Shown in pieces: positions 2,066 to 54,843 of a stretch of DNA of 64,000 nucleotides; the first letter of the stretch is position 1, and each line of letters begins with the position of its first letter. The position numbers and the translations under genes were made by a program. The notes below the pieces were generated by a model. It saw only the letters and a list, made by a program, of their open reading frames with translations, searched no databases and was not told where the DNA came from. The DNA is from Candidatus Methanomethylicia archaeon (GTDB lineage Archaea; Thermoproteota; Methanomethylicia; CALHIW01): positions 1-64,000 of the forward strand of contig JAWBQF010000006.1 in NCBI GenBank assembly GCA_038845975.1, in the 5' to 3' direction.

Positions 2066-2857
2066 ATGAATGTTCATCTAGTAACGTGTGGTACATCGAT
2101 TATTGAGAACTATATTAGACGTTTAGATCCCTCAAGTGAGGATCGTAGGATAGCTGAAAGTGATGTGGAGGTTATGAAGAGGGTAATGCCTGCTGATCCG
2201 TTTTTCAGGAGGGTTTATAGTCTACTTAGGGAGGATCCTTATGCTATGAGTGCTGAGATTAATGCTATGAGGGGCTTTCTTGAAAATAAGCTTATCAGTA
2301 AGGTTTATCTATATCATACGGATACTGGTAAGGGGTTATTTTGCGCTAAACTTATTGAGAAGTATCTTACTGATAATTTAATAGAAACTGAAACGATTAG
2401 GGTTGAAGGGTTTGGTGTTGAGGGATTCTTTGAGGATGGTCTTGTAAACCTTCTAGATAAGGTAATGGATAAAGCCTATAGGCTATTAGAAGCCGGATTT
2501 AACGTATATTTAAATGCTACAGGAGGATTTAAGCCTGAAAACGCCATACTTACAATAGCTGCATCTCTTCTAGGAATCCAGAACATATACTATATACATG
2601 AAAGGTTTAGAAGTCATGTAGATATACCAGTTTTACCGTTAACTCTAAGTCATGAATATTTAAAACCATTAAAACATCTATATGAAGAATGTGGAAAACA
2701 TGGCTTCGCTTCTCAATTCCAATTCATTGAGAACTATGGGAAAAACATATTTAGTAGTCTTAGAAACAGAAATTTAATCACAATAGAGGATGGAAGGATA
2801 AAGCTTAGAAAATGGACATACATAATGTTAAAATACATACTTAAACAATCCACATAG
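2066..2857 (+). CDS. APE2256/Sso1393-family CARF protein with C-terminal wHTH (Crn1-type ring nuclease candidate)
   Basis: Motifs TCGTS, SAEIN, YHTDT, NATGGFKPE typical of the APE2256 family. Confidence 0.85.
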   Translation: MNVHLVTCGTSIIENYIRRLDPSSEDRRIAESDVEVMKRVMPADPFFRRVYSLLREDPYAMSAEINAMRGFLENKLISKVYLYHTDTGKGLFCAKLIEKYLTDNLIETETIRVEGFGVEGFFEDGLVNLLDKVMDKAYRLLEAGFNVYLNATGGFKPENAILTIAASLLGIQNIYYIHERFRSHVDIPVLPLTLSHEYLKPLKHLYEECGKHGFASQFQFIENYGKNIFSSLRNRNLITIEDGRIKLRKWTYIMLKYILKQST

Positions 2858-2941: not shown

Positions 2942-4300
2942 TTAAAGTCTTCTGCATGTTTTAATTACTTTTCTTAGATTGTCTTCTGCATAGCGGAATC
3001 TTAAGTGGGGTTTAATTTCTTTTTTGATTGTTTCATCATCCATGGAGTTAAGTCTGTTTTGAAATTCAGAATCGCTATCAATTCTTATCTCAACAGTATT
3101 TCTTTCAAATCCTGAGTGGAATATAAAATTTCTATTGTCAAATCCTCCTCCTTCAATTACTTCATTTAATCTAATCCACTTATTGAAAATTCCTTCATCC
3201 TCCTTAATTTTCTTACTGATTCTACTTGGTATTTCATGGCATAGGTCATGGCTTATAGCTATTTCAAGTCTTTTAAATTTTGAAAATAATCTTTCACATA
3301 ATTCGTTTAATTCATTAAATGATACTTCATGCTTCCTCGATAAATTTAGTAGTGATGCAATAAACCATATAATTGTACATGTAGTGAAGTCCTCCGTAAA
3401 CTTAACTTTTCTCTCTATAACGTATTCATTACCTACATGCTTTATACATACTTCATTCAGCCAGGTATTAAATGCTTCATCAATTTTCTCTTTAAGAGCC
3501 TTTAAATCAGGATACCATCTATATAAGGCTAGAGGAAATCCATTTAAAACAGAGTTTAGAAATACATTTAATTCCTCTACTTCATGATCATTCAAGCTAA
3601 ACCTCTTAATAACCTCAATAATACCATCATTTTGCTCAAATTGGCTTAGTAGTCTATGTACTCCACCAATCTTCATAGGCTGAAAAGCAAGCAAGGGAGA
3701 TACTACTCTATCCTCAACTAGATGTATCTCCATTTTATCAGTAACATTCCTCACGTATGGATCTGAATTGAAAACCTTTAACTCAACTGAGGTTGTTAAT
3801 GCTAAAGCATTCAGCATCTCCCTAATACATCTATACGTTAAAGTAGGCATGAAATTTATGCCGTGGGTAAGATCTAAATATACAGTTAACTCCTCATTAC
3901 ATAGGAAATATTTAAGTAATGCATATAGTGTATAAGCATAGAAATCACTTAAACTACCGGAGAATCTAAAATAGTAATCGTCAAATTTAAATCTTCCAAC
4001 ACCGGGTGCAACAATAAAACTAACATTACAGGCTAAATCACTTCTAGCCTCATCCATTAGGGACTTTAGAAATTCTCTATATCTATACTCTACATTTCTC
4101 AACAAATCATTGTATGAGTTAAACCTTTTATTTGCAACTGTATCTAAAACTACTATTAAAGTTAAATCTGGACTTAAAGAGTTAAGTAGGAGTGGAAGAG
4201 AGGATCTACTCTTAATGGAGTTATTGCCATAAACATATTCAACAGAACTCCATCCAGGAATCCAGGGATTACCCCAAGTTGCAACGAGAATGGACTTCAT
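2942..4300 (-). CDS. csx1: CARF-HEPN ribonuclease Csx1
   Basis: ATWGNP N-terminus, DLTHGINFMP (DxTHG) motif, HEPN RNFIFHSGFE. Confidence 0.93.
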   Translation of the reverse strand: MKSILVATWGNPWIPGWSSVEYVYGNNSIKSRSSLPLLLNSLSPDLTLIVVLDTVANKRFNSYNDLLRNVEYRYREFLKSLMDEARSDLACNVSFIVAPGVGRFKFDDYYFRFSGSLSDFYAYTLYALLKYFLCNEELTVYLDLTHGINFMPTLTYRCIREMLNALALTTSVELKVFNSDPYVRNVTDKMEIHLVEDRVVSPLLAFQPMKIGGVHRLLSQFEQNDGIIEVIKRFSLNDHEVEELNVFLNSVLNGFPLALYRWYPDLKALKEKIDEAFNTWLNEVCIKHVGNEYVIERKVKFTEDFTTCTIIWFIASLLNLSRKHEVSFNELNELCERLFSKFKRLEIAISHDLCHEIPSRISKKIKEDEGIFNKWIRLNEVIEGGGFDNRNFIFHSGFERNTVEIRIDSDSEFQNRLNSMDDETIKKEIKPHLRFRYAEDNLRKVIKTCRRL

Positions 4301-4537
4301 TAAAATAAATATAAAGCAAACTTAAAAACTTAACACCACTATGGATTACACTTCAATTAAACTTTATGAGGCTTCAAATTTTAAATTTAACCAATTCTGA
4401 AACTGTAGATTTGAATTACTATTATGGTTGAATTCCTCATTGCTTGAAGAATGTAAGTGTTGATGGAGTTTATTGTTTAAGTATTTACTAGTTACTAACT
4501 ATTTGGTAGATTTGCTATAGTATTGGCTTTAACATTT

Positions 4538-5209
4538 TTACTTTTCATGCTTAACCTTTCTAACAATACTTTTCAAATCTATAATCCACTTTATTTTTTT
4601 ATCTTCAGTTACATACATTAAAGGTATTAGGTATAATGATGCAATATCGTAGAAGGCTATTGTAGCAGGCTTTGTAGCGCCTGTACAATCCATTATTAAC
4701 GGATAGTTCTCAATAATATCCTCAACTATTGATTTAACCCTACTTCTTAAAGCATTAACATCAGATATTTCATCTCCACTACAAAGTATGAAGTTACAGT
4801 TCACTACATCTATATTCTCCCATTCACCTAAAGCCTTAGATGTTGTTATTACGTAAGACCTATCATACTCAATACCCTCCATTTTAAGAAGCTTTAATGC
4901 TGTTAATGTTTCAGGCTCCTCCCTATTGTTTCTCCTACCAAGTAATCCTAGATATGTATATGGCTTCTTAAGGTTTAAAATAGTGTAAAACACACCTTTA
5001 TATTTCAGTTTATAGAATCCCCTAAGATCCGAATTTACAATTCCTAGTTTACCTAGTCTATTTAAGTGGTGTTTTAAGGCTCCACCCTTAACCCCGCTAG
5101 TTCTCTCAATATTTGAAAAGTTGGTTAAGCCATTAAATCTTAGTAAGGCATCAATAATCTTAATGCTCTTCTCAAACTTTAAAGCCTCCTTAACTTTATG
5201 CTCAAACAT
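4538..5209 (-). CDS. N-terminal wHTH + C-terminal CARF-like domain protein (putative cOA-responsive regulator)
   Basis: ArsR-like HTH (FSNIERTSGVKGGALKHHLNRL), CARF-like LGLLG strand and DCTGATK motif; divergent from the cas operon. Confidence 0.75.
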   Translation of the reverse strand: MFEHKVKEALKFEKSIKIIDALLRFNGLTNFSNIERTSGVKGGALKHHLNRLGKLGIVNSDLRGFYKLKYKGVFYTILNLKKPYTYLGLLGRRNNREEPETLTALKLLKMEGIEYDRSYVITTSKALGEWENIDVVNCNFILCSGDEISDVNALRSRVKSIVEDIIENYPLIMDCTGATKPATIAFYDIASLYLIPLMYVTEDKKIKWIIDLKSIVRKVKHEK

Positions 5210-5210
5210 A

Positions 5211-5251
5211 AGTAAAACTACATTTATAATATATAAACTTGTAGCTTTACT
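5211..5251. promoter_or_regulatory. Palindromic operator candidate in the divergent promoter
   Basis: AGTAAAACTACA-N17-TGTAGCTTTACT (11/12 inverted match) enclosing TATA-like TTTATAATATATAAA. Confidence 0.6.
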
Positions 5252-5295
5252 CCAAGAAAATTTTTTAGATAGTAATAAAAATATTATTGGTATTT

Positions 5296-5670
5296 ATGTC
5301 TAGTATTGATGAATTTATGGGAGAGGATATTTTTAACTTAGCTATCAATACCGGTAGTAAAATGACGCCTCGTGTTGATAAGACAACTCTCAGCAATCTT
5401 ATATCACTATTTCTAGGTAGGCTTGATGCTAAAGCCGCATTGAATGAGTTAATAGTTTATATTGCTAGACAAACCGGTAGGAGGGAGATTCCGAGGGATA
5501 TTGCTAAACTCCTTCTTTCAGACATTAGACAGATAAGGAGTAAATGTAGAAATGAAGAGGAGCTTAGAGAGGCTATATCTAAGTATCTAGTATTACTGAG
5601 ATGGGTATATGATAGTGATGTTAGGAATGTTGATAATATTGATAGATTCATGAGTAAGCTTACTGAGTGA
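5296..5670 (+). CDS. Type III small subunit (Cas11/Csm2-like)
   Basis: ~124-aa helical protein, first gene of the RAMP operon; YIARQ..R and YL..LRWVYDS patterns of crenarchaeal small subunits. Confidence 0.7.
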   Translation: MSSIDEFMGEDIFNLAINTGSKMTPRVDKTTLSNLISLFLGRLDAKAALNELIVYIARQTGRREIPRDIAKLLLSDIRQIRSKCRNEEELREAISKYLVLLRWVYDSDVRNVDNIDRFMSKLTE

Positions 5671-6392
5671 TATTGATGATATATTTTAACAGTCAACATA
5701 TAACGTATAGGATTAATGCTGAGCTCATAAATGAGACTCCACTATCTATAGGTGCAGGTAGAGGAGCATTGTTTGGAGGTATTGATAACCCTATAATAAG
5801 AATGAATGGTATACCATTCATTCCTGGATCGTCTATTAAGGGAGTGCTTAGAGCTGAAGCTGAAAAATACGCTAATGTTAAGGGATGGCCTGTATGTGAT
5901 GTTGTATCCAATCCAAACTATGAGATGGATATGAAGGAGAATCTGAAGGATAAATATGAGCCATGTATTGTATGTAGTGTTTTCGGGGGACCAACCGTAG
6001 CCTCCAAAATCACAGTCCTAAATGCCACACCAATAGGTGAATATAGAATTGAGACGAGAACATGCGTATCAATATGTAGGATTACTGGTGGTCAGTATCC
6101 AGGTAGACTATTCGATATTGAGTACATAACTCCACATAGTAGGTTTGAATGGGGATTAATTATTGAGGGCTACGATATAGTTAATGGAGTTGGAAGAGAA
6201 GTTGAACTTATAAATTACTTGATTAAGAAACTTATTAACGATGGGGTTTGGATTGGTGGAAGGAGAAGTGTAGGTCATGGATTGGTTAAGATGAATATCA
6301 GGAAGATTTCACGTGAATCAATAGTTAATGGGGAATTGAAATCTGAAGACTGTACAGATAAGTATCTTAAGTTACTAGGTGTAAAGCATTGA
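5667..6392 (+). CDS. csm3: Cas7-group RAMP (Csm3-like)
   Basis: TPLSIGAG..IDNP, IPGSSIKGVLR, C-x-x-C-x-x-FG, G-rich loop IGGRRSVGHG. Confidence 0.9.
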   Translation: MILMIYFNSQHITYRINAELINETPLSIGAGRGALFGGIDNPIIRMNGIPFIPGSSIKGVLRAEAEKYANVKGWPVCDVVSNPNYEMDMKENLKDKYEPCIVCSVFGGPTVASKITVLNATPIGEYRIETRTCVSICRITGGQYPGRLFDIEYITPHSRFEWGLIIEGYDIVNGVGREVELINYLIKKLINDGVWIGGRRSVGHGLVKMNIRKISRESIVNGELKSEDCTDKYLKLLGVKH

Positions 6393-7243
6393 CTCAATGG
6401 TTTGTTCACGACTACTTATATAGAGTACTGAATGTTAAGTTAAGCTTTGAGGCTAAGTCGCCGTTTAGGATTGGAGCTGGAAAATCAACATCCCTAACAT
6501 CACCTGTAGATCTTCAAGTATTAAGAATAAATATTAATGGAAGAGAGGTACAGTACATACCTGGAAGCAGCTTAAAAGGAGTATTTAGATCTGTGTCTGA
6601 ATTCATCGCTAAGTCGAATGGTATAAATGCATGTATGGCAGGTAATGAATGTAAAGATAACTATAATAGAAAACTGGACGATGCTCTTAGAAGTAGGAAT
6701 CTAGATGAGGTTAGGAAGATATTAGCTAGCTACTGCCTAATATGTAAGCTGTATGGTTCAGGTAGCTATGCTTCACATATAATCTTCGGAGATATGTTTC
6801 CAGAGGGGGATATAGCTATAGGCGTTAAGACAGGAATAGCAATAGATAGGAGAAGTGGAACTGCTAAGCGTGGTGCTTTATATACTGTTGAATTCATAAT
6901 GCCTGGAAGCATATTTAAAGGAAACATTACACTTATAAACACTCCTAACTATGCTATTGGATTATTATCCTACGTTATTAAATTAATTAACGATGGAGTT
7001 ATTAGAATTGGAGGGTTTAAGTCAAGAGGATTTGGTCAATTCTCAGTTAATCCAATGGAAATCAATGGAGAAATTATCCATAACAATAAAGTAATGAAAA
7101 TATCTGAGGTTGACATCTTCGAGCCGCTTGACGAGTTCGATAGTGAGGTTAATATTGCTGATGTAGGGAGGAACTATGCTAAGCTTCTTGAAAGGTTTAG
7201 GATAGCATGGGATAACTATGTCTCAAAGATTAAGCATAGCTAG
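6389..7243 (+). CDS. Cas7-group RAMP (Csm3/Csx7-like)
   Basis: PFRIGAG..VD, IPGSSLKGVFRS, CLICKLYG, IGGFKSRGFG. Confidence 0.9.
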   Translation: MTQWFVHDYLYRVLNVKLSFEAKSPFRIGAGKSTSLTSPVDLQVLRININGREVQYIPGSSLKGVFRSVSEFIAKSNGINACMAGNECKDNYNRKLDDALRSRNLDEVRKILASYCLICKLYGSGSYASHIIFGDMFPEGDIAIGVKTGIAIDRRSGTAKRGALYTVEFIMPGSIFKGNITLINTPNYAIGLLSYVIKLINDGVIRIGGFKSRGFGQFSVNPMEINGEIIHNNKVMKISEVDIFEPLDEFDSEVNIADVGRNYAKLLERFRIAWDNYVSKIKHS

Positions 7244-8147
7244 AAAACCATATACTCCAAGGGATAGAGTAGATAGGGATAGATTCAACATAATATTAGA
7301 TGTTGAAGCTGAAGTAATATCAAATAGCTACCTATTTACAGGGGCATCCGTACATAAGGTTGAAGTATACGATGTAGTTGGCAGAATGGAAAATGTTATT
7401 CAGAGATATTTACGTGGAGAAATAAGCGAGGATGAGATTATAAATATAATCTATAATCAGTATAGAGGAGTTGAAATAAGACCATCGAGGAGAATGCCTA
7501 GATACCTGGATAAAATCATAATTCCAGGATCATCCATTAAGGGCGCTATCAGATCTAGAATTGAGTATAAATGCTCCCCATCAATATCGTGCTACTCAGT
7601 TGAAAGTAGGGAGTTGCCGCCAAAACAATTCTATAGGAGACATATAGGATATTGGGGTGAAAATGTAGTTGATGCTAGAGGGGCATGTAGTCCAGATAAT
7701 GTATGTATTGTATGCGATTTATTCGGAGCTCCAGGACTACTCTCAAGAGTATACTTTACAGATATGGTTATGAGTAGTGGAGGAGTAAGCTTCCTAAAGG
7801 ATTTGGGAGTGGAAGCAGTAAATCCGAACTCAAAATTTAATCTTGAAGTTAACGGTGTAAACTTTAACTTTACAGATCTCGGCCTCATGCTTGCAGGTCT
7901 TGAAATATTTACTGGAAGCCGTGTTCCAATATGTGCATACAAGTATAGGTATAATCCTAATCTGGGAGGTGGACACTACATGGATAAATACGTGTTTGGA
8001 CTTGTAAAATTCTCCATTAACGGGTTTAGGGAAAACATTTCTAGGAAGCTATCAGATCTAAAACTTGAAGACTTAATATCTAGATCTAGAGAGGAATTAA
8101 CCAATACTCTTGGAGACAATATAGATATACGTAAAGGTGTTATTTAA
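7218..8147 (+). CDS. Cas7-group RAMP with insertion
   Basis: IPGSSIKGAIRSR, CIVCDLFG. Confidence 0.85.
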   Translation: MSQRLSIARKPYTPRDRVDRDRFNIILDVEAEVISNSYLFTGASVHKVEVYDVVGRMENVIQRYLRGEISEDEIINIIYNQYRGVEIRPSRRMPRYLDKIIIPGSSIKGAIRSRIEYKCSPSISCYSVESRELPPKQFYRRHIGYWGENVVDARGACSPDNVCIVCDLFGAPGLLSRVYFTDMVMSSGGVSFLKDLGVEAVNPNSKFNLEVNGVNFNFTDLGLMLAGLEIFTGSRVPICAYKYRYNPNLGGGHYMDKYVFGLVKFSINGFRENISRKLSDLKLEDLISRSREELTNTLGDNIDIRKGVI

Positions 8148-8422
8148 TGGCCGTCTCAGAGGAGGAGCTTCTTAAAATTGTTGGTAGGTATAGTAAGGTA
8201 TTTATCGTTAAGGATGACATGACCTATGACTTGAAGAATGGAAGCGAAATACGTAGCTCCAGCGATCTTGGGGTTCTCGGATTTGCCCTTACTAATGGTA
8301 AGGGAATTAAATGGTTGAGAATTGGTGAGAAAAAATATGTTGAATACCAGATCGATCTAAGTAGGAGCTACATCCATCCATCTTTAGGTAGAAAGGGAAT
8401 TAGGATAGAGGAGGTGATTTAG
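8147..8422 (+). CDS. Small (91 aa) protein in the type III operon (possible Csx19-like subunit)
   Basis: Overlaps stop/start codons on both sides (translational coupling); no recognisable motif. Confidence 0.65.
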   Translation: MAVSEEELLKIVGRYSKVFIVKDDMTYDLKNGSEIRSSSDLGVLGFALTNGKGIKWLRIGEKKYVEYQIDLSRSYIHPSLGRKGIRIEEVI

Positions 8423-11040
8423 TGGATAGAATTGTTAGGGGATACATACTTCCGAAAGCTGGAAATATACATGTTGAGGAGATATCATATATTGAAGGAG
8501 AGGAAATGCTTAGAAAATATGAAGAGGTTCTTAGTAACATTATATCAAGCTTTCTGAATACGAGAAAAATAGATAAGATAAGAAGTGGGGAAGAGCTTTA
8601 CGATCTATTAAACGAGATCGTCGTAACGATTAGATGGACACTATATCTTGACCCAATACCTAAAGTTATACCTTCCCCTGCATTCCTCATAATTTATCTA
8701 ATTAGAAACAAAAACCTAAAGCTGTTCAGTAAAGACACTATTAGCGGCCTACATGAGACACCGGTAATAGAGGATGCATTGAAAAGATCGGTCGAATACG
8801 AGAGACTTAGGGAATACGTAATGGATATTCTACGATATCCCGCAGATACCCGATATGGAGCCAACACATCATCGCTCCTAATACATATGATTACGACATC
8901 AGCTATAGCTTCATGTCTTCTTTTAAGCAGATTTAAAGATGTGAAGGACATTCAAAATATGCTTATAATCTTAAGATTGATATCGCTATTTCATGATGTC
9001 GGCAAATTCAATATGAGGGAATGGCATAGACATGAGGATAAATCAATGGAATTCATGGATAAAGTATTTAGTGAATATGTTGATGGGGATGCTAAAAAGC
9101 TTATAGATGATGCTAAGAAAATTATGAGGGAGAATACAGGCACTATTATGGATATATTTAGGGAGGCTGATAGAATTTCAAGCAATATAGATAGGCTTGT
9201 AAGATATATTCCGGACATGTTATCGGAGAAGGTGAAAGCGGAGCTTATAGAATGTGCAGGTAAATATGGTAGATCGGTAGAGGATGCATATAGGGACTGG
9301 AAGTTTTGGGATTTCGTAGGATATGAAATGATTAAAAAGCTTACAGAGGATTTCTGTAGGAATGCATCAAGAATAGATAGTAGAAATCCGATAATAAGAG
9401 CGGAGGTTGAGTTGAAGGAGGACTGGAAAGAATTAAAGGAGATATTAGTGACGAGATTTGATGTTAGAGGCATTCAAAACTACATTAGGGTTAACGATTT
9501 ACGGTCAATATGTGGTGCAAGTAGAATAGTTGACTTTACATGTTTAGTATCAATACCATGCTTTATAATCAACAATCTTAAACTCCCAGCTGAATGTATA
9601 CTATACTTTGGAGGAGGGAGCATTACAGTAGTAACGCCGCCAGATAAGGTTAGTGAATTCAGTAAGCTATGTAGTGAAGCTAAGCGTGAGCTAGGGCTTA
9701 ACATTATATATGGCTCATCTTACTTCCACTCATCGTTCTCAATAGTAAACTACAATATAGATTGCGAATTGATGAGAAGGAAGATACTTGAGGATGAGGA
9801 ATTGAATGTGGAGCCAAACATATCCTATATATGTGATTTCTGCGGATCCAGTAGAGTAGAGGTATTGGATGGAAATAGGGAGAAGGTAGGGGACAGCCTA
9901 GTATGTAGGGCATGTAGGGTTAAGTATGATGTTGGTGATAGCATATATCTTAACTGGAGGATCAGGAGGGTAAAGAGTTTATTAAGCTTAAATGTTGATT
10001 TAGATAAGCTTAAGAAATACGTGATGGAGTATATAGCTGGGGTAAAGTATGAATCCATAGAGAGGGAATATATCGAGAGGTATCCGAACATAGCGTTGAT
10101 AAGATTTGATGCCAATCTAGCATCCTTAATTATGATGTCATGTACATCCATAAGTGATGCCGTTGAGAGAAGTATTAGGATTGATTATAGCGTTAAGAAG
10201 GCTCTCCACGATGTTATCGATTATGTTAGGAACAAATATGCAGAGGAATATTTTAGGCTCATATTAGGTATAATATATGTTGGAGGGGATGATGGCTTTA
10301 TGCTTTGCCCATCATATATTGCACTACCATTAACAATACATCTAGCTAGGGAATTCAATATTCAGATGGGCGGTAAGGCAACACTATCAATAGGTATTGC
10401 TGTAGCTAAACCTAAACATCCAATTCTTGAATTATATAGATCTGCAGGCTACCTACTAGATAAATATGCTAAGGGAAGCGCTAGAGGGGAATCCGTTAAG
10501 ATAGCTGGAGGCTCTGATCATAAGTTTTATGGCTCGCTTGCATTCTATGTCGCTGATGGTGGGGTAATGACTGAACACGTATTAGACCATGTAATCGATC
10601 TTGTAGGTAGTAAGAGGCTGAGCTTGATGTATGATGAGATGGGAAAGATAGGATCCTATATGATTTCAAGTATTCAAGAGGATAACTCGATATTTAGATT
10701 GTTAAGCATAGTTTTCGGTGATATAGATATAGAAACGTTCAACTATAGGGGCTTAATGGATATGATTATAAACTCAATAAATGAAAAGCAAAGAAGCGGT
10801 GAAAGCGATCTACATAATAGACTTACAGACATAAGAAATGATGCTCTGGATATAGTTAAGAAAACCCTATTTACAGATGATAGTGTTAAGGTTAAGATAA
10901 TATATGCTAAGAGACAGAGCAAAAGATTAGGACATCGCTATATAGATATTCTTAAGTATTTATTTAGCTTGAAGGAAATGAGGTTTCCACTTCATGATCT
11001 TCTTCAAATAGTTAAGATTGTAGGTGGGGGAATTGAATAG
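8422..11040 (+). CDS. cas10: Cas10 with HD nuclease and palm (cyclase) domains
   Basis: H..LFHDVGK..ADRISS HD domain, CDFC/CRAC Zn finger, YVGGDD palm motif. Confidence 0.95.
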   Translation: MDRIVRGYILPKAGNIHVEEISYIEGEEMLRKYEEVLSNIISSFLNTRKIDKIRSGEELYDLLNEIVVTIRWTLYLDPIPKVIPSPAFLIIYLIRNKNLKLFSKDTISGLHETPVIEDALKRSVEYERLREYVMDILRYPADTRYGANTSSLLIHMITTSAIASCLLLSRFKDVKDIQNMLIILRLISLFHDVGKFNMREWHRHEDKSMEFMDKVFSEYVDGDAKKLIDDAKKIMRENTGTIMDIFREADRISSNIDRLVRYIPDMLSEKVKAELIECAGKYGRSVEDAYRDWKFWDFVGYEMIKKLTEDFCRNASRIDSRNPIIRAEVELKEDWKELKEILVTRFDVRGIQNYIRVNDLRSICGASRIVDFTCLVSIPCFIINNLKLPAECILYFGGGSITVVTPPDKVSEFSKLCSEAKRELGLNIIYGSSYFHSSFSIVNYNIDCELMRRKILEDEELNVEPNISYICDFCGSSRVEVLDGNREKVGDSLVCRACRVKYDVGDSIYLNWRIRRVKSLLSLNVDLDKLKKYVMEYIAGVKYESIEREYIERYPNIALIRFDANLASLIMMSCTSISDAVERSIRIDYSVKKALHDVIDYVRNKYAEEYFRLILGIIYVGGDDGFMLCPSYIALPLTIHLAREFNIQMGGKATLSIGIAVAKPKHPILELYRSAGYLLDKYAKGSARGESVKIAGGSDHKFYGSLAFYVADGGVMTEHVLDHVIDLVGSKRLSLMYDEMGKIGSYMISSIQEDNSIFRLLSIVFGDIDIETFNYRGLMDMIINSINEKQRSGESDLHNRLTDIRNDALDIVKKTLFTDDSVKVKIIYAKRQSKRLGHRYIDILKYLFSLKEMRFPLHDLLQIVKIVGGGIE

Positions 11041-11659
11041 CCAGATTAAGATAGAGCTTGAACTGATAGCTGAGAGGAAGCTTAATATCGGAGCTGGAGG
11101 AGTAGCGCCCAAGATAAAAGCAGATATGCCTATGATGTCCATTAAGGCATTTAACAATGAGGACTACGTATTCATTCCCGGATCAACCATTAAAGGATTG
11201 CTTAGAACGAGCTTAATAAGGATTTCAAGTCTACTCGGATATGAAAACATAACGTATACTGTAAATCCGGAGGATAAAATGGGTGACGATATTGTTGTAA
11301 GGCTTTTCGGTAAGCCAAATCAAAACGTTCAAAGTAAGGTTTCGGTGGAAAGCGTAATGATTAAGGAATCAACGGAAACATTAACACATGTTAGGATAGA
11401 TGATAAGTCAAGAACGGCTATAGAGGGTGGACTATTCTCGATCGAATATTTACCGATAGGAAGTATTATTAGAGCAGTAATTGAGGCTAGGGAGCTGAAT
11501 ATCGAGGAGGCTAGAGCGCTTATGGCAGCTATATTGAATCTAAGATATGAGAGGATAGGTAAATCAGGAATTGTTAACGTTAGGATTAGGGATGCATCTG
11601 GAATTGAAAGCTATCTATCAGACCCCATCATTAAGGAGATATATGAGTCCTTAAGGTGA
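11024..11659 (+). CDS. Cas7-group RAMP
   Basis: LNIGAGG..AD, IPGSTIKGLLR, LFG, THVRIDD. Confidence 0.88.
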   Translation: MGELNSQIKIELELIAERKLNIGAGGVAPKIKADMPMMSIKAFNNEDYVFIPGSTIKGLLRTSLIRISSLLGYENITYTVNPEDKMGDDIVVRLFGKPNQNVQSKVSVESVMIKESTETLTHVRIDDKSRTAIEGGLFSIEYLPIGSIIRAVIEARELNIEEARALMAAILNLRYERIGKSGIVNVRIRDASGIESYLSDPIIKEIYESLR

Positions 11660-11663
11660 TAAC

Positions 11664-12677
11664 GTGAGGATATATAGCTTGGAGTTAACCGTTAATACGC
11701 CATTAATAATTACTGGAGCCAAGTACGGTAGGGTTATCGAGCATAGCATTAACTATATTCCAGGATCATCTATTAGAGGATCAATACTTACACTTTTAAA
11801 ATTCATGAATTCAAAGCTCGTTGATGAGGAAATATCAACTCCGAAAATGATTTTCCATCCAGCATATCCTATAAGCCAAGATGGAAACCAATCCTATCCA
11901 TCGGATCCATTAACGTTTAAATGTAAGATATGTGGGGAAATAGTTCAACTTCCAGTTAAATCCCCTGAAGACCTGAGGATACCTACTAAATATGGAGAGA
12001 ACCATATATGTATGTTCAAAAACATAGGGGGCTCCCTAATCTATTGTAGGAATGGGAAGTTAAAGAGCTTAAATCTGAAGCATGCATTCATAGAGGCTGT
12101 AGGTATAAATAAGATGTTAAGAAGCTCAGAAACTGGTCTACTATATAGTTATGTTGCTCTTGCTCCAGGAGTAGTGTTTAGAGGGTTGGTTATCGATCCT
12201 ATAGATAGGCTTGAACAAATGATTAAGGATGTAGGTTTAAGCATGAATAGCTTGAAGCTGAAAATCGGTAGGAGGGTATCTGCTGGGCTTGGACGTGTAG
12301 AGGCTAAAATAGCTGAGGATAAAAACTATATTGATAGGAGAATTAAACAGCTATCTAGTACTAACGGTACACTATGTCTGCTAGCTAAGTCACCTGTCTT
12401 CAATTTAGACTATGATGAGAAGGATATCTTCCCAACAGTTAAGAGCATTGGGAGTCTACCAGTAAAATACGTATTCAAAACTGGAATAGTTGAGGTCTCA
12501 GGCTATAGTATTAAGTCGAATACTCCTAAAGTCATGATTAAAGGATTAAATATTGGGTCGCTAATAGTTCCTGATGCTAGGAATATATGTGTGGAGGACT
12601 TGGTGAAGCTGGAGCTTCATGGAGTAGGGCCATTCTCGACTGCAGGATTGAATATTGTTGAGGTGGTTAAGAGGTGA
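11664..12677 (+). CDS. Cas5-group RAMP (Csm4/Csx10-like)
   Basis: YIPGSSIRG, FHPAYP, IGRRVSAGLG and C-terminal GVGPFSTAGLN G-loop. Confidence 0.82.
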   Translation: MRIYSLELTVNTPLIITGAKYGRVIEHSINYIPGSSIRGSILTLLKFMNSKLVDEEISTPKMIFHPAYPISQDGNQSYPSDPLTFKCKICGEIVQLPVKSPEDLRIPTKYGENHICMFKNIGGSLIYCRNGKLKSLNLKHAFIEAVGINKMLRSSETGLLYSYVALAPGVVFRGLVIDPIDRLEQMIKDVGLSMNSLKLKIGRRVSAGLGRVEAKIAEDKNYIDRRIKQLSSTNGTLCLLAKSPVFNLDYDEKDIFPTVKSIGSLPVKYVFKTGIVEVSGYSIKSNTPKVMIKGLNIGSLIVPDARNICVEDLVKLELHGVGPFSTAGLNIVEVVKR

Positions 12678-13600
12678 TTGATTACAGATTAAATTCAAGA
12701 TATATAATCAACATGAGGATAAATCCGATAAGCCCAATACATATAGGGGCAGGTGAAGAGGGATTCGTAAAGGGAATAGTATCCATGAAAATCTCAGGAA
12801 TCACACTACCGATAATTCCGGCTGAAAGCATAAAGGGAATACTAAGAAGTATGGCTACTAGAATAGCTAACAGTATAAGATTTAATAAGGTTATGTATGA
12901 CTTCAATATAGATGAAATTGTTAAAAGTCATGATAAAGATGTTCATACAGGCTACCTAGAGAAAACACTTAAGGAAAGTAGTGGGGAGGAGTTAAGGAGG
13001 AGAATTTGGAAAACCCTAAGTAGTATAGGGTTAAGCGATAAACAGATAAGTAAATTCATAGATGAAGTTGGAAGTAGGGAAGCATTAGAGCTCTCATTAT
13101 CTCTTCTATGCCCTATCTGTCTACTCTTCGGCTCAAGACATTATGCAGGTAAAATACTGATTACAGATGCCATACCAGTAGATCAAAATGGGGAAATTGC
13201 AAAGCCGGAAATAGAGACAAGAACATGCGTCAGCATATCGAGGAGATATAGAGTAGCAGAGCCGGAGAAACTATATACGATACAATACATAACCCCGAGG
13301 AACATATCGTTTAAATCTAAGATGATAATCGATAACGTTATGAAGGGAGATACGGAGGCCAAACTATTAGCATACCTACTAAAACATATAAGTGAAAATG
13401 AAGTTGTAATAGGTGGGTTGAAAAGTAGAGGTTTTGGATTCGTTAAGATAGATTCTGAAATAATGAAAATGAAGCTTACAAAACCGAAAAACATAAGTGA
13501 TCTAGGTACAATAATGAGTAACATTAAGGCATTACTAATGAGAGAGGATGCTGTGGAGAAGTTAACAATAAGCCAGATGATAATAGACTTAACTAATTAA
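12674..13600 (+). CDS. Cas7-group RAMP
   Basis: PIHIGAG, IPAESIKGILRS, CPICLLFG, IGGLKSRGFG. Confidence 0.9.
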   Translation: MIDYRLNSRYIINMRINPISPIHIGAGEEGFVKGIVSMKISGITLPIIPAESIKGILRSMATRIANSIRFNKVMYDFNIDEIVKSHDKDVHTGYLEKTLKESSGEELRRRIWKTLSSIGLSDKQISKFIDEVGSREALELSLSLLCPICLLFGSRHYAGKILITDAIPVDQNGEIAKPEIETRTCVSISRRYRVAEPEKLYTIQYITPRNISFKSKMIIDNVMKGDTEAKLLAYLLKHISENEVVIGGLKSRGFGFVKIDSEIMKMKLTKPKNISDLGTIMSNIKALLMREDAVEKLTISQMIIDLTN

Positions 13601-13606
13601 TCTTTT

Positions 13607-14857
13607 ATGAGCTTTCAGTTAACATTATTTGAACTTGGATTAATAACAAGATTACTAGTGGAAACGCCATTAAGAATCCTAGGCGACCTAGTTAAAGCCA
13701 CATATTACAAGACAAGCGATTTTGAAGGTTATGTTAAAAAATCACTAGAAAATGTATTGAAATCAATTCAAGTTGTAACACAAACAGTAAATATAGAGGA
13801 AGAAATGATACAGAATACAAAAGAGAGAATGAACAGAAGGGAAGAAACAATACAAAACATAGAAGGAGAGAAGGAAAAGATTGCTGATATGATAATTAAT
13901 GATTGTTTTAAGATTATTAGAGATGATGTTCTTAATGAATTACCAATTGACTTAATAATACTACCTATAAGGTTTAGTGATTGTCTATTCTTAATTATTG
14001 ATAGATACCTTAAATTACTTACTGGTACTCATGATACTGAATTGATAAAAGTATTGGATAATGTTATTTTCAACATTTCTAGCTACCTAATGAGCCAAAT
14101 TTACCTAATTATAGATAGGCATGAAAATGGATTTAGTGAAGTAGCTCATTATATAGCTGATAACATTAATAATATTAAATATCTATATAATATTAAACCT
14201 AAGCTCCTATTTGACCTACTTGACTTATCTAAACAAAAAGGAAATATTAGAAAGTGTATGGATATGAATGGGAATGAATACTATGTATTTGATGTAAAAA
14301 GCTTTGGTGATGATGCTAGACCGATTATAGATGTTCTTAACAATAAGCATCCAATAAAATATTATACTGATGTTTTTGAATGCGACTTCCATAAAGAGCT
14401 ATATTTAAGTGAGAGGAAATGTAGTAGAGGCGACCTCTTAAAGCATAGGGAGAATGTTTTTCTAATACCCTACTCTCTACTTGAAGTAGATATTGGGAGA
14501 ATATTGGAGGCTCTTGTTTATTTAAGGCTAAGAAGCAATATTAGAGCTAATAAATTACTGATTACACATAACGTTTTACTTAATAATATAGAGTATGACA
14601 TATTAAGCTTTCAACTTACCTATACTGGATCGTATAGAGATGTATTGGATATTGAGATAGATGCTATTAATGTATTTGAATGTAAGAAAACAGTTGAAGA
14701 GAAAGATATGCGTGAATTCGATCAAGATATGAAGATGCTAGAGAAACACGTGTATGGCGTAAAAATCAACCCGTATATTATTTGCATTGAGAGTGAAGTT
14801 GCTGAAAAGGATAACATTATATTACTTGAAGATTGGGAGAAGCTTGATAGGCTTTAG
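13607..14857 (+). CDS. Hypothetical protein with N-terminal coiled/helical region and C-terminal PD-(D/E)xK nuclease-like domain
   Basis: ILEALVY...EYDIL...VFECK pattern; starts 6 nt after the last RAMP gene. Confidence 0.65.
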   Translation: MSFQLTLFELGLITRLLVETPLRILGDLVKATYYKTSDFEGYVKKSLENVLKSIQVVTQTVNIEEEMIQNTKERMNRREETIQNIEGEKEKIADMIINDCFKIIRDDVLNELPIDLIILPIRFSDCLFLIIDRYLKLLTGTHDTELIKVLDNVIFNISSYLMSQIYLIIDRHENGFSEVAHYIADNINNIKYLYNIKPKLLFDLLDLSKQKGNIRKCMDMNGNEYYVFDVKSFGDDARPIIDVLNNKHPIKYYTDVFECDFHKELYLSERKCSRGDLLKHRENVFLIPYSLLEVDIGRILEALVYLRLRSNIRANKLLITHNVLLNNIEYDILSFQLTYTGSYRDVLDIEIDAINVFECKKTVEEKDMREFDQDMKMLEKHVYGVKINPYIICIESEVAEKDNIILLEDWEKLDRL

Positions 14858-34562: not shown

Positions 34563-35501
34563 ATGTCTTTCACTAGATATGTAGCTTTACGTATATTTCA
34601 AGCTATTCCGACAATTATAGGAGTTGTAGTTGTCATGTTTATTCTCGTTAGAATGCTTCCAGGAGATCCTGCAAGACTTATTGCTGGTCCTGAAGCTTCT
34701 GAGGAAGATGTTAGAAGAATTAGGGAAATACTTGGTCTTAATAAGCCTTTATACATTCAGTTTGTAGAGTATCTACTAAGTCTTCTAAGAGGCGATCTTG
34801 GACTATCAATAAAGTTCGGAACTCCCGTAGTTAATGAAATTATGTCTCGATTACCGTATACTATTATTCTTGCTGTTACTGCTGAAGCTATAGCTGTAGC
34901 TACTGCATTACCATTAGGAATAATATCTGCTATGAAGCCTCAATCTAGAATTGGATACTTATCAACTATAGTATCACTGCTTGGATCTTCAATACCAATA
35001 TACTGGATGGGTTTAGTGTTTATAGCTATATTTGCTGTTGAGCTTAGGCTTCTACCATCTAGTGGTGCTGAAAGCCCTAGGCATCTAGTACTTCCAGCAT
35101 TAACACTATCCCTTCTTTTAATGGGTAATCTTACAAGAATTACTAAGGTATCAGTTATAGAAGCTCTTGAAAGCAACTATATAACAACAGCTAGAGCTAA
35201 AGGACTTTCTGAGAGAATCGTGATTTTAAGACATGGACTTAGAAACGCCATGATTCCAATAGTTACGATAATGGGTATTCAGCTTGGAGCACTTTTAGGC
35301 GGTGCTATTCTTACTGAAACGGTTTTTGCATGGCCTGGAGTAGGTTTACTACTTGTTGATTCAATATTTTATAGGGATTATACATTGATTCAAGGTATTG
35401 TGGTATTCATAGCTTCAATGATTGTAGCTATAAACATAATTGTTGATGTAGTATATGTAGTTATAGATCCTAGAGTAAGAGGGATTATATGGGGGAGGTA
35501 A
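34563..35501 (+). CDS. dppB: Peptide ABC transporter permease
   Basis: PGDPA, GDLG.S, TARAKGL..HGLRNA, ETVFAWPG. Confidence 0.93.
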   Translation: MSFTRYVALRIFQAIPTIIGVVVVMFILVRMLPGDPARLIAGPEASEEDVRRIREILGLNKPLYIQFVEYLLSLLRGDLGLSIKFGTPVVNEIMSRLPYTIILAVTAEAIAVATALPLGIISAMKPQSRIGYLSTIVSLLGSSIPIYWMGLVFIAIFAVELRLLPSSGAESPRHLVLPALTLSLLLMGNLTRITKVSVIEALESNYITTARAKGLSERIVILRHGLRNAMIPIVTIMGIQLGALLGGAILTETVFAWPGVGLLLVDSIFYRDYTLIQGIVVFIASMIVAINIIVDVVYVVIDPRVRGIIWGR

Positions 35502-53418: not shown

Positions 53419-54843
53419 TTGTCTATTAAACCGCTTATAGAGCCGGAGAGCGTAGCAGTAGTTGGAGCATCCAGGAATCCTGCAAAGCTTGGAGCTATAG
53501 TACTTAGAAACCTGATTAATTTAGGTTTTAACGGCCGTATCTATCCAGTTAATCCGAATGCTAATGAGATCATGGGCTTAAAAGCATACCCCTCCGTTAA
53601 GAGTATTCCTGATAATGTTGATTTAGCAGTTATAGTGGTTCCAGCTCCGCAAGTTCTAGATGTTGTAAGGGATTGTGTTGAGAAGAAGGTTAAGGGAATC
53701 GTTATTATTTCATCGGGATTTAAAGATATTGGGGATAAGGGTGCGGTTATTGAGGAACAAATTGTTGAATTAGCTAGGAAGGCTGGAATCCGAATATTTG
53801 GACCTAACACAACAGGTCTCCTTAACACTTCTAAGAAGCTTGCAACAACCTTTGTTCCATTATTTGAGTTGAGGAAGGGTAATGTATCAATTATTGCTCA
53901 AACAGGCTTATTTGCTGGAGCTATGCTTGAATGGCTTGCAACATCTCAAAAGTTTGGAGTTAGTAAGGTTATTGGTTTAGGTAATAAATGTGATGTTGAT
54001 GATGCTGAGGCTTTAGAGTATCTAGGCATTGATCCTGAGACACATGTTATCTTAATGTATGTCGAAGGAGTTAAGGATGGGAGAAGATTTATTGAGGCTG
54101 CACGGCAAGTTGTAGGAAGGAAACCTATTATAATTCTGAAATCTGGACGAACAGAAGCAGGTGCAAAAGCAGCATTAACACATACAGGCTCTTTAACTGG
54201 AAGTAGTCAAATATTCAATGCTGTATGTAGACAGTTAGGATTGATTCAAGTATTAAGCTTTGAGGAGATGGTTGATCTTGCTAAAGCCTTTACCTTTCTA
54301 CCACTACCTAGAGGAAATAGAGTTGCTATTGCATCCATTACAGGTGCAGGATCAGTACTAGCTGCCGACTCATGTATTGAACATGGACTTACTATAGCTC
54401 AGCTATCAAATAAATCAATTGAAATAATTCAATCTCATTTACCACCATGGAGTAAGGCGTCTCATCCAATAGATCTTGAGCCTCTCGTTGAGAACATGAA
54501 TAAAGCAATTGAAGCTTATAGGTTAGCTTTAAATACAGCATTAAGTGATGGAAACGTTGACTCCATGCTAGCAGTTCTACTTGCATCTCACGAATACTGG
54601 AGAGATTCAAAGTTCTGGGTTGATGAGGAAGAGTTAAGAAAAACATTTATAGAGCTTAAAAGAACATATTCTGAAAAACCTCTAGTAATACATTTAATGG
54701 GTGGGAAACCAGCTGTTGATCGATGGACTGAAATTCTTGAGGAAACCGGAATCCCTGTATACTCATCAATAGAGCGAGGAATAAAAGCATTAGCTACACT
54801 AGCTAGCTATGCTAAAACTAAAGTAGCATATACAGTACAGTAA
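53419..54843 (+). CDS. Acyl-CoA synthetase (NDP-forming), alpha subunit
   Basis: VAVVGASR, YPVNP, GPNTTG, KSGRT..THTGSL. Confidence 0.92.
   Translation: MSIKPLIEPESVAVVGASRNPAKLGAIVLRNLINLGFNGRIYPVNPNANEIMGLKAYPSVKSIPDNVDLAVIVVPAPQVLDVVRDCVEKKVKGIVIISSGFKDIGDKGAVIEEQIVELARKAGIRIFGPNTTGLLNTSKKLATTFVPLFELRKGNVSIIAQTGLFAGAMLEWLATSQKFGVSKVIGLGNKCDVDDAEALEYLGIDPETHVILMYVEGVKDGRRFIEAARQVVGRKPIIILKSGRTEAGAKAALTHTGSLTGSSQIFNAVCRQLGLIQVLSFEEMVDLAKAFTFLPLPRGNRVAIASITGAGSVLAADSCIEHGLTIAQLSNKSIEIIQSHLPPWSKASHPIDLEPLVENMNKAIEAYRLALNTALSDGNVDSMLAVLLASHEYWRDSKFWVDEEELRKTFIELKRTYSEKPLVIHLMGGKPAVDRWTEILEETGIPVYSSIERGIKALATLASYAKTKVAYTVQ

Follow-up and report, generated by a model that had tools for sequence, protein, structure and literature searches.

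What is known of signalling by type III CRISPR systems comes mostly from enzymes that harm the cell, and the locus considered here raises the question of whether a small DNA-binding protein can read such a signal and act on transcription instead. The locus lies in a stretch of 64,000 nucleotides from a Candidatus Methanomethylicia archaeon (contig JAWBQF010000006.1, positions 1 to 64,000), which is called the window below. Near one end of the window, a gene for a protein of 223 amino acids, P0001, stands back to back with a type III-D effector operon. On balance, and with modest confidence, P0001 is best seen as a dimeric transcription factor that senses cyclic oligoadenylate (cOA) and occupies the promoter region shared by the two. 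It probably switches both the type III operon and its own gene.

The regulator gene and the first gene of the operon are transcribed away from each other across a gap of 86 bp (5210-5295), with the operon ATG at 5296. A preliminary description of this DNA had placed the regulator divergent from an effector operon across ~86 bp, and had assigned to it an N-terminal winged helix-turn-helix (wHTH) domain and a C-terminal CARF-like domain. The arrangement of the genes is as described, with the operon classed as type III-D by PADLOC, and the protein is divided as follows:

4538 to 5209, minus strand: regulator gene for P0001, 223 amino acids, wHTH then CARF (translation of the open reading frame with ATG at 5209; structural model; PADLOC CARF_m5 profile)
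4967 to 5209, minus strand: ArsR/SmtB-type winged helix, codons 1-81 (VIA-align; Pfam HTH_5 below threshold)
4568 to 4966, minus strand: CARF domain, codons 82-214, with D174-x-T176-x-x-x-K180 after strand 4 (VIA-align; motif conservation in 24 sequences)

Both domains are borne out by an AlphaFold2 model of P0001 built on a 24-row alignment (mean predicted local distance difference test, pLDDT, 93.1; predicted template modelling score, pTM, 0.88) and by its exhaustive comparison with 48,161 chains by VIA-align, in which the protein splits at residues 81/82. Residues 82-214 match Can2 (8bao, Z 14.6), VC1899 (1xmx, 14.2), Csm6 (6tug, 13.3), Card1 (6wxw, 13.2), a second Can2 entry (7bdv, 13.1), Cdn1 (13.0), Csm6' (12.9), Sso2081 (7ygh, 12.2) and Sso1393 (3qyf, 11.9). 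All nine of the top nine rows are therefore CARF proteins (Z 11.9-14.6), and Csa3 follows (6wxq, 10.5). DSSP places the strands of the modelled CARF part at residues 84-89, 115-123, 138-143, 171-174, 197-200 and 206-210. Foldseek against the PDB, which had been suggested as a check of the CARF fold, lists the CARF proteins Cam1, Csm6, Can2, Card1 and Sso2081, although its top rows are O-methyltransferases that share a wHTH-plus-Rossmann outline at a poor TM score of ~0.26.

Residues 1-81 superpose on the winged helices of the ArsR/SmtB repressors CzrA (1r1u, Z 11.7), BigR (11.2) and HlyU (11.2) with an rmsd (root-mean-square deviation) of 1.9-2.4, which is a clear fold match, and the predicted recognition helix spans residues ~42-54 (GALKHHLNRLGKL; limits from DSSP of the model). 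Repressors of the ArsR/SmtB type bind palindromic operators over their own promoter. P0001 differs from them in having no metal- or thiol-sensing part, its presumed sensor being the C-terminal CARF domain, and in that HTH_5, its only Pfam match, stays below the gathering score (E 5.6e-4; 20.2 bits, cut-off 22 bits). The NCBIfam scan of P0001 returns no match, and a sequence search of solved structures yields only spurious repeat matches and weak helix-turn-helix matches. In the model, the domain order of P0001 is wHTH then CARF, the reverse of that in Csa3.

The conserved pocket of CARF domains lies at the end of strand 1 and directly after strand 4, with the signature [DN]X[ST]XXX[RK], according to the available text of PMC4012209. 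When the alignment of 24 sequences is viewed on the model, the invariant and near-invariant columns fall in strand 1 and its loop (Y86, G88-G91, R96, E100) and right after strand 4 (D174, C175, T176, T179, K180, P181-A185). The stretch D174-C-T176-G-A-T-K180 satisfies the signature, with D174 and T176 invariant and K180 present in at least 90% of the 24 sequences.

A candidate binding site lies in the gap between the two genes. The 12-bp inverted repeat with one mismatch that had been reported to bracket the TATA box of the regulator is indeed present: AGTAAAACTACA (5211-5222) is complementary to TGTAGCTTTACT (5240-5251) at 11 of 12 positions, and the 17-nt spacer between them reads as TATA-like on both strands. 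The elements of the gap are listed here, with scores from a position weight matrix that is described below:

5210 to 5222, plus strand: box B (AAGTAAAACTACA), which includes the left arm 5211-5222 and abuts the regulator ATG (matrix score 8.65, rank 45 of 64000 positions)
5223 to 5239, no strand: A/T spacer of 17 nt, TTTATAATATATAAACT, TATA-like on both strands (read from the sequence; presumed promoter element)
5240 to 5252, minus strand: box A (GAGTAAAGCTACA on the minus strand), which includes the right arm 5240-5251 (matrix score 11.53, rank 5 of 64000)
5252 to 5290, no strand: second inverted repeat, CCAAGAAAATTTTT / AAAAATATTATTGG, 14 nt, 86%, 11 nt apart, just ahead of csm2 (inverted-repeat listing)

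On the minus strand, TTTATATA (5237-5230) stands ~21-28 nt before the regulator ATG, a placement that fits a leaderless or near-leaderless archaeal promoter, while the plus-strand reading of the same A/T block is TTTATAAT. In the 2.77-Mb assembly, the full palindrome is found only once, and so is the relaxed pattern GTAAARCT-N4-30-AGYTTTAC. The second inverted repeat could be a second operator or a hairpin in the 5' untranslated region.

What supports the palindrome as a real candidate operator is the presence of related pairs of boxes upstream of homologues. Among 33 homologues whose upstream 140 nt were compared, loci of the Bathyarchaeia/Nitrososphaeria type share a pair of boxes with the core GAG-N5-CTC, 19-23 nt apart from start to start, such as GAGCAAAACTCTA-N8-GAGTAACACACTA in locus L020 and AAGTAAAACTCTA-N8-GAGTAATACTTCA in locus L012. 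The arms in the window, extended to 13 nt as box A and box B, resemble these boxes. A position weight matrix was built from 22 boxes of 11 loci, with the window left out. Applied to the 64-kb window, it ranks the arms 5th and 45th among all positions, and the pair second of all pairs. In leave-one-out runs over loci of 1.7-16.6 kb, the highest-scoring pair anywhere in the locus stands 51-76 nt ahead of the regulator gene for 11 of 11 loci, as it does for two near-duplicates. In 20 loci outside the matrix, the best pair lies 28-104 nt upstream in five (L013, L023, L032, L035, L041) and not within 200 nt in the other 15. The preliminary description had advised looking for the palindrome upstream of homologues. 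Related pairs are found in 13 Bathyarchaeia-type loci, with a spacing and position that differ from those in the window.

The boxes vary together with the predicted recognition helix. Where the pair score is 17 or more, 15 of 18 loci have the helix motif [HY]HLN[RK], among them the window with KHHLNRL; below that score, the motif is present in two of 16. Three Asgard loci (L036, L037 and L040, from Freyarchaeota and Jordarchaeia) carry DYNLT(I/V/L)L helices and share a palindrome of the type TTCGAACA-N-TGTTCGAA, with TGTTC(G/A)AAA as its right half, in up to three repeats 80-105 nt upstream; yet another palindrome is found upstream in L033. A DNA-binding protein that has an operator of its own would be expected to show such a correlation, which shared ancestry can also yield. 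The pairs of box and helix from several lineages would provide ready controls of specificity.

Some further sites were noted around these boxes. Locus L004 (G041:C37, positions 1504-2190) holds a degraded homologue, from a genome of the same class, with several in-frame stops and an intact pair, GAGCATAACTCTA ... GAGTAAAGTACTA, upstream. Two weaker box-like sites in the window, 5161-5173 and 5191-5203 (score 7.78 each), lie 30 nt apart within the first codons of the regulator, where they coincide with a 19-nt direct repeat. Single half-site matches elsewhere in the window, including those at 34580, 35779 and 60598, were taken as chance, since five matches compare with 1.58 expected and five of 100 shuffles reach five. 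A scan for sigma-70 promoters and terminators gave no excess over shuffles, under a model unsuited to an archaeon.

The genes around the regulator include those expected to make and use a cOA signal:

5296 to 5670, plus strand: first operon gene, Csm2-like small subunit, type III-D (PADLOC PDLC01503 Csm2 'CAS-III-D', E 3.6e-13; no Pfam match)
5667 to 13600, plus strand: remaining type III-D effector operon, comprising Cas7/Csm3-like genes, an open reading frame of 91 amino acids, cas10 and Cas5_IIId/Csx10 (Pfam RAMPs and Cas10 palm2; PADLOC names)
8422 to 11040, plus strand: cas10 (HD and GGDD motifs in the translation)
11664 to 12677, plus strand: Cas5_IIId/Csx10 (PADLOC/Pfam)
2942 to 4300, minus strand: csx1, CARF9 CARF-HEPN (Csx1_CARF 2.6e-39; Csx1_HEPN 1.6e-7; TIGR01897 1.4e-68; PADLOC CARF9 5.3e-95)
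2066 to 2857, plus strand: Crn1-like CARF7 protein (Cas_APE2256), probable ring nuclease (Pfam 7.2e-36; PADLOC CARF7 1.2e-65)
403 to 821, no strand: CRISPR repeats of period 65, unit beginning GAATCTCAAATAAAGAGAATTGAAAG (Tandem Repeats Finder, rows 403-559 and 664-821)

In Cas10, the cyclase and HD motifs are intact, with YVGGDDGF (GGDD) and FHDVGKF (HD) in the translation. Against the ring nuclease model NF040951, the Crn1-like gene scores E 5.1e-23, well under the 600-bit cut-off. From the Cas10 motifs, csx1, the Crn1-like gene and the CRISPR repeats around the regulator, it follows that a cOA-making, cOA-using system is present there. The csx1 gene lies 237 bp downstream of the regulator on the same strand. 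Its upstream region is A/T-rich with TATA-like sequences of its own, and no box is found there among the top matrix matches of the window; control of csx1 by the regulator, which the preliminary description had included, is therefore the weakest part of that reading.

The linkage between the regulator and type III genes extends to its relatives. A word-indexed search at E<=1e-3 retrieved P0001 itself and 27 other proteins of about its length, 28 in all, whose named sources are Bathyarchaeota, Nitrososphaerales and Freyarchaeum assemblies, and 24 of these proteins form the family alignment. P0002 and P0003 are 68% identical to P0001. In a scan of metagenomes for close relatives, one copy only was found, with 100% identity (L056). 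Homologues were further sought in one genome per species, giving 44 loci. Two of these, L054 and L055, contain C-terminal fragments only and were set aside, and open reading frames were called in the other 42. The 225 neighbouring open reading frames were compared with Pfam, and linkage was counted in the 28 loci with at least 2.2 kb upstream. An upstream cluster with Cas10, RAMP or Cmr genes is present in 22 of these 28, and in 22 of 22 the regulator lies on the strand opposite to the cluster. The loci are distributed as follows:

L013, L016, L018-L021, L023-L026, L031-L037, L040, L041, L043, L047, L053: linked to type III genes (22 loci)
L012, L039, L049, L050: no CRISPR genes upstream
L051: a Crn1-like gene only upstream
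L027: unjudged, as the upstream open reading frame runs off the contig

The family is a small archaeal one. A hidden Markov model (HMM) search of 1.84 billion representatives returned 281 clusters at E<=1e-3, of which 79 reach E<=1e-10 and 54 reach E<=1e-30, and most of the weaker matches are winged-helix-only proteins. Among the 12 best clusters, five are of 452-531 amino acids with two matched stretches, and in the tandem forms from L045 and L046 Pfam finds a second helix-turn-helix at about residue 260. The tandem forms are:

L045 (1922-3439), L046 (1355-2821) and L048 (481-2088), and proteins P0029-P0032 and P0038: single-chain wHTH-CARF-wHTH-CARF forms of 452-535 amino acids (two matched stretches)

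Such chains are as expected if the working unit were a dimer.

On the favoured reading, P0001 would dimerise via its CARF domains, as other CARF proteins do; a homodimer prediction with two copies of P0001 scored 0.01 against a mark of 0.42, which gives no verdict and weighs neither way. The two winged helices would bind the 13-nt boxes 5210-5222 and 5240-5252 on either side of the two-way TATA-like element. Because box B touches the start codon of the regulator and box A covers the position upstream of its TATA, occupancy would block the archaeal pre-initiation complex in both directions, and P0001 would act as an autorepressor and as a repressor of the cas operon. Cas10, with its intact GGDD, would make cOA, most likely cyclic tetra-adenylate (cA4), which the CARF pocket would bind. 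The ligand would then alter the spacing or angle of the winged helices and relieve repression or, less likely, strengthen binding, and infection would thereby feed back on the level of the effector complex. The identity of the ligand, the sign of regulation and the role of this element as promoter of the cas operon are inferred.

A more far-reaching version of this mechanism is conceivable, and we hold it only tentatively, as something rather to be doubted than expected. It takes P0001 for a dedicated, cOA-gated type III switch of reversed domain order, whose dimer would straddle the two-way TATA, so that one palindrome, unique in the genome, would hold the sensor gene and the whole III-D operon off until cA4 appears. 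Infection would trigger positive feedback, the helix and the operator would have changed together across archaeal phyla, and some lineages would have fused the dimer into one chain. If true, archaeal type III signalling would regularly include transcriptional feedback as a built-in arm, separate from the cross-talk between Csa3 and type I-A systems.

Several observations weigh against cOA sensing by P0001, or against the palindrome as its site. On the protein side, strand 1 of the CARF part ends in Y-L-G-L-L-G-R-R, with G88-G91 invariant and without Ser/Thr, whereas a CARF strand 1 often, though not universally, ends in a polar residue, typically Ser/Thr (PMC4012209, available text). No type III genes are seen in six of the 28 loci (four without CRISPR genes, one with only a Crn1-like gene, one unjudged), and the loci are relatives, mostly Bathyarchaeia, the counts thus not being independent. 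The missing Ser/Thr and the four loci without CRISPR genes nearby would suit a local transcription factor whose CARF-like domain senses a ligand other than cOA, or nothing at all and serves dimerisation only, and according to the same source some CARF families may bind distinct ligands (PMC4012209). This explanation is nevertheless unlikely, given the type III linkage of 22 of the 28 loci, the intact GGDD of Cas10 in the window, the retention of the [DN]x[ST]xxx[RK] signature, basic residue included, and the fact that the best structural matches are cOA-binding CARF domains. It is even harder to believe that P0001 is mainly a ring nuclease like Crn1, which would degrade cA4 to end signalling and use its winged helix as a structural part. 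The Crn1 proteins Sso2081 (Z 12.2) and Sso1393 (Z 11.9), of the Cas_APE2256/CARF7 type, are among the structural matches and likewise combine a small CARF domain with a winged-helix-like domain in type III loci, and the widely kept K180 recalls Lys106, which matters for cA4 binding and cleavage in Sis0455 and Sso2081 (PMC10018336, available text). However, the CARF domain comes first in Sso2081 and Sso1393 and second in P0001, and the strand-1 serine position is not conserved in the P0001 family, where G-L-L-G-R stands in place of Ser11 of Sso2081 (PMC10018336) and no Ser/Thr follows strand 1; the equivalence of both residues is drawn from motif position only and not from superposition. P0001 has no match to Cas_APE2256 in Pfam (PF09651) or to the NCBIfam ring nuclease model (NF040951) at E<=0.01, and a true CARF7 gene stands 1.7 kb from the regulator. 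Alignment of the family with this Crn1-like protein of the window by hhalign is not significant (probability 0.26%, 20 columns), with DCTGATKP lined up with NATGGFKP, while the tandem form of L046 gives a weak match of the Cas_APE2256 type (E 4.9e-3). Conserved adjoining box pairs and a recognition helix that tracks the boxes would be unexpected for a pure enzyme, and the activities of a ring nuclease and a regulator are not mutually exclusive. AbiEi proteins are autoregulating winged-helix proteins, and the NCBI name of the homologue P0005, 'type IV toxin-antitoxin system AbiEi family antitoxin domain-containing protein', would make P0001 the AbiEi-like antitoxin of a toxin-antitoxin pair. 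This identity is scarcely credible and was rejected: P0001 has no AbiEi family match in Pfam or NCBIfam, no gene for an AbiEii-type toxin is adjacent in the window, and VIA-align identifies the C-terminal domain as a CARF fold.

On the DNA side, the inverted repeat by itself is at chance level and not significant. With arms of at least 12 nt, at most one mismatch and a spacer of 3-30 nt, inverted repeats as good as this one number 19 in the 64-kb window. An equal repeat also arises in 1163 of 20000 mononucleotide shuffles (5.8%) of the 86-bp gap, which is 83% A+T. The limits of the boxes were set by eye after the arms in the window were known, which makes the matrix test only partly blind; an unrelated pair at 53887/53916 outscores the regulator pair, and four unrelated sites in the window outscore the better arm. 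These results would be expected if the palindrome at 5211-5251 were a chance feature of an A+T-rich promoter, with the true site, if any, elsewhere. We regard this as quite improbable, since the pair ranks second in 64 kb under a matrix that comes from other genomes, the corresponding gap holds the best pair in all training loci, in the near-duplicates and in five of 20 independent loci, and the HHLNRL helix is common to those loci and the window. The geometry is a further difficulty for P0001 as the occupant of this promoter. The boxes of the window are 30 nt apart from start to start, inverted, and flank the TATA, whereas those of its relatives are 19-23 nt apart and lie upstream of the regulator TATA, and one protein geometry may be unable to fit both layouts; the difference in spacing is near one helical turn. 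Between the palindrome and csm2, the second inverted repeat and further A/T blocks intervene, and the palindrome is only a putative site of the cas-operon promoter.

A close counterpart of P0001 among known CARF regulators is Csa3 (Csa3a/Csa3b), which is built of the same two blocks and has no enzymatic domain. Csa3 binds cA4 and regulates cas genes (PMC8699464 and PMC9704534, available texts). Its order is CARF then wHTH (PMC8699464), whereas P0001 has the wHTH at residues 1-81 and the CARF domain at 82-214, and it is often found in type I-A systems (PMC9704534), whereas the family of P0001 is linked to type III. The earlier statement that Csa3 regulators are CARF-then-HTH and mostly linked to type I-A agrees with this 2022 review, the available part of which also names Csa3 as the sole experimentally characterised non-nuclease CARF effector (PMC9704534). 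The matches of P0001 to the PADLOC profiles of Csa3 are confined to its winged helix (E 1.9e-4; E 4.4e-4, profile positions 140-210 of 305), and no full-length Csa3 match is found in Pfam, NCBIfam or PADLOC.

A different PADLOC profile, PDLC01987 'CARF_m5--CARF', matches P0001 at a moderate score (E 1.4e-14, 52.7 bits; no curated cut-off is given for this profile), with residues 29-209 aligned to profile positions 19-195 of 195. From this span it follows that the profile covers both the winged helix and the CARF domain. It is matched by 24 of the 24 aligned family members (best E 1.4e-18), over nearly its whole length in P0001, so the architecture is already on record as a minor CARF clade, which we take to have been defined in the Makarova 2020 classification. 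The proposal of a distinct factor thus holds for the reversed order relative to Csa3, but not in the sense of an uncatalogued type. Among the papers available for searching, none names 'CARF_m5', none pairs HTH-CARF or wHTH-CARF with type III CRISPR in its main text, and no functional study of the family was found; for the years from 2022 on, the terms cOA, CARF transcription factor and operator yielded only the Csa3 structure paper and one unrelated paper. A 2024 survey of type III systems, in the part available, disregarded transcription factors and left them for future study. P0001 is an added member of a catalogued, functionally unstudied family, for which the type III linkage and the lineage-specific operator are new comparative evidence. 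The family offers a compact test case, in which a small protein faces a type III operon across a candidate operator found once in the genome, and could reveal whether cOA feeds back on the expression of the effector complex.

The gene directly opposite the regulator varies among the homologous loci. In nine of them, it encodes a DEDD-type exonuclease of ~215-245 amino acids (RNase_H_2 / DNA_pol_B_exo1), which is directly divergent and lies between the regulator and Cas10:

L014, L017, L020, L024-L027, L032, L053: loci with the DEDD exonuclease (Pfam)

In CorA type III systems, DEDD phosphodiesterases degrade SAM-AMP, according to the available part of the 2024 survey, and by analogy the exonucleases opposite the regulator could be signal-degrading enzymes under its control. 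In five other loci (L018, L019, L031, L034, L038), the directly divergent gene encodes a Cas4/Csa1-like PD-(D/E)XK nuclease of ~290-305 amino acids, followed by type III genes where the flank is long enough.

Transcript data for the window are sparse. One of five listed RNA runs contained 5% of the sampled words, and placement in four runs gave two reads over 5255-5905 in X4 and five short contig pieces in X1, too few to locate a promoter. Nothing was placed over 4387-5254 and neither starts nor ends were seen, in data too thin to judge expression of the regulator. No family was found for a protein of 416 amino acids encoded at 13607-14857, directly after the III-D operon (Pfam, NCBIfam, PADLOC), nor for the 91-residue product of 8147-8422, just ahead of cas10 (Pfam, PADLOC). 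The same two databases, Pfam and PADLOC, give no family for the open reading frame at 1211-2035 (274 amino acids), which is flanked by the CRISPR repeats and the Crn1-like gene and consists of two tandem copies of 402 nt with 75% matches.

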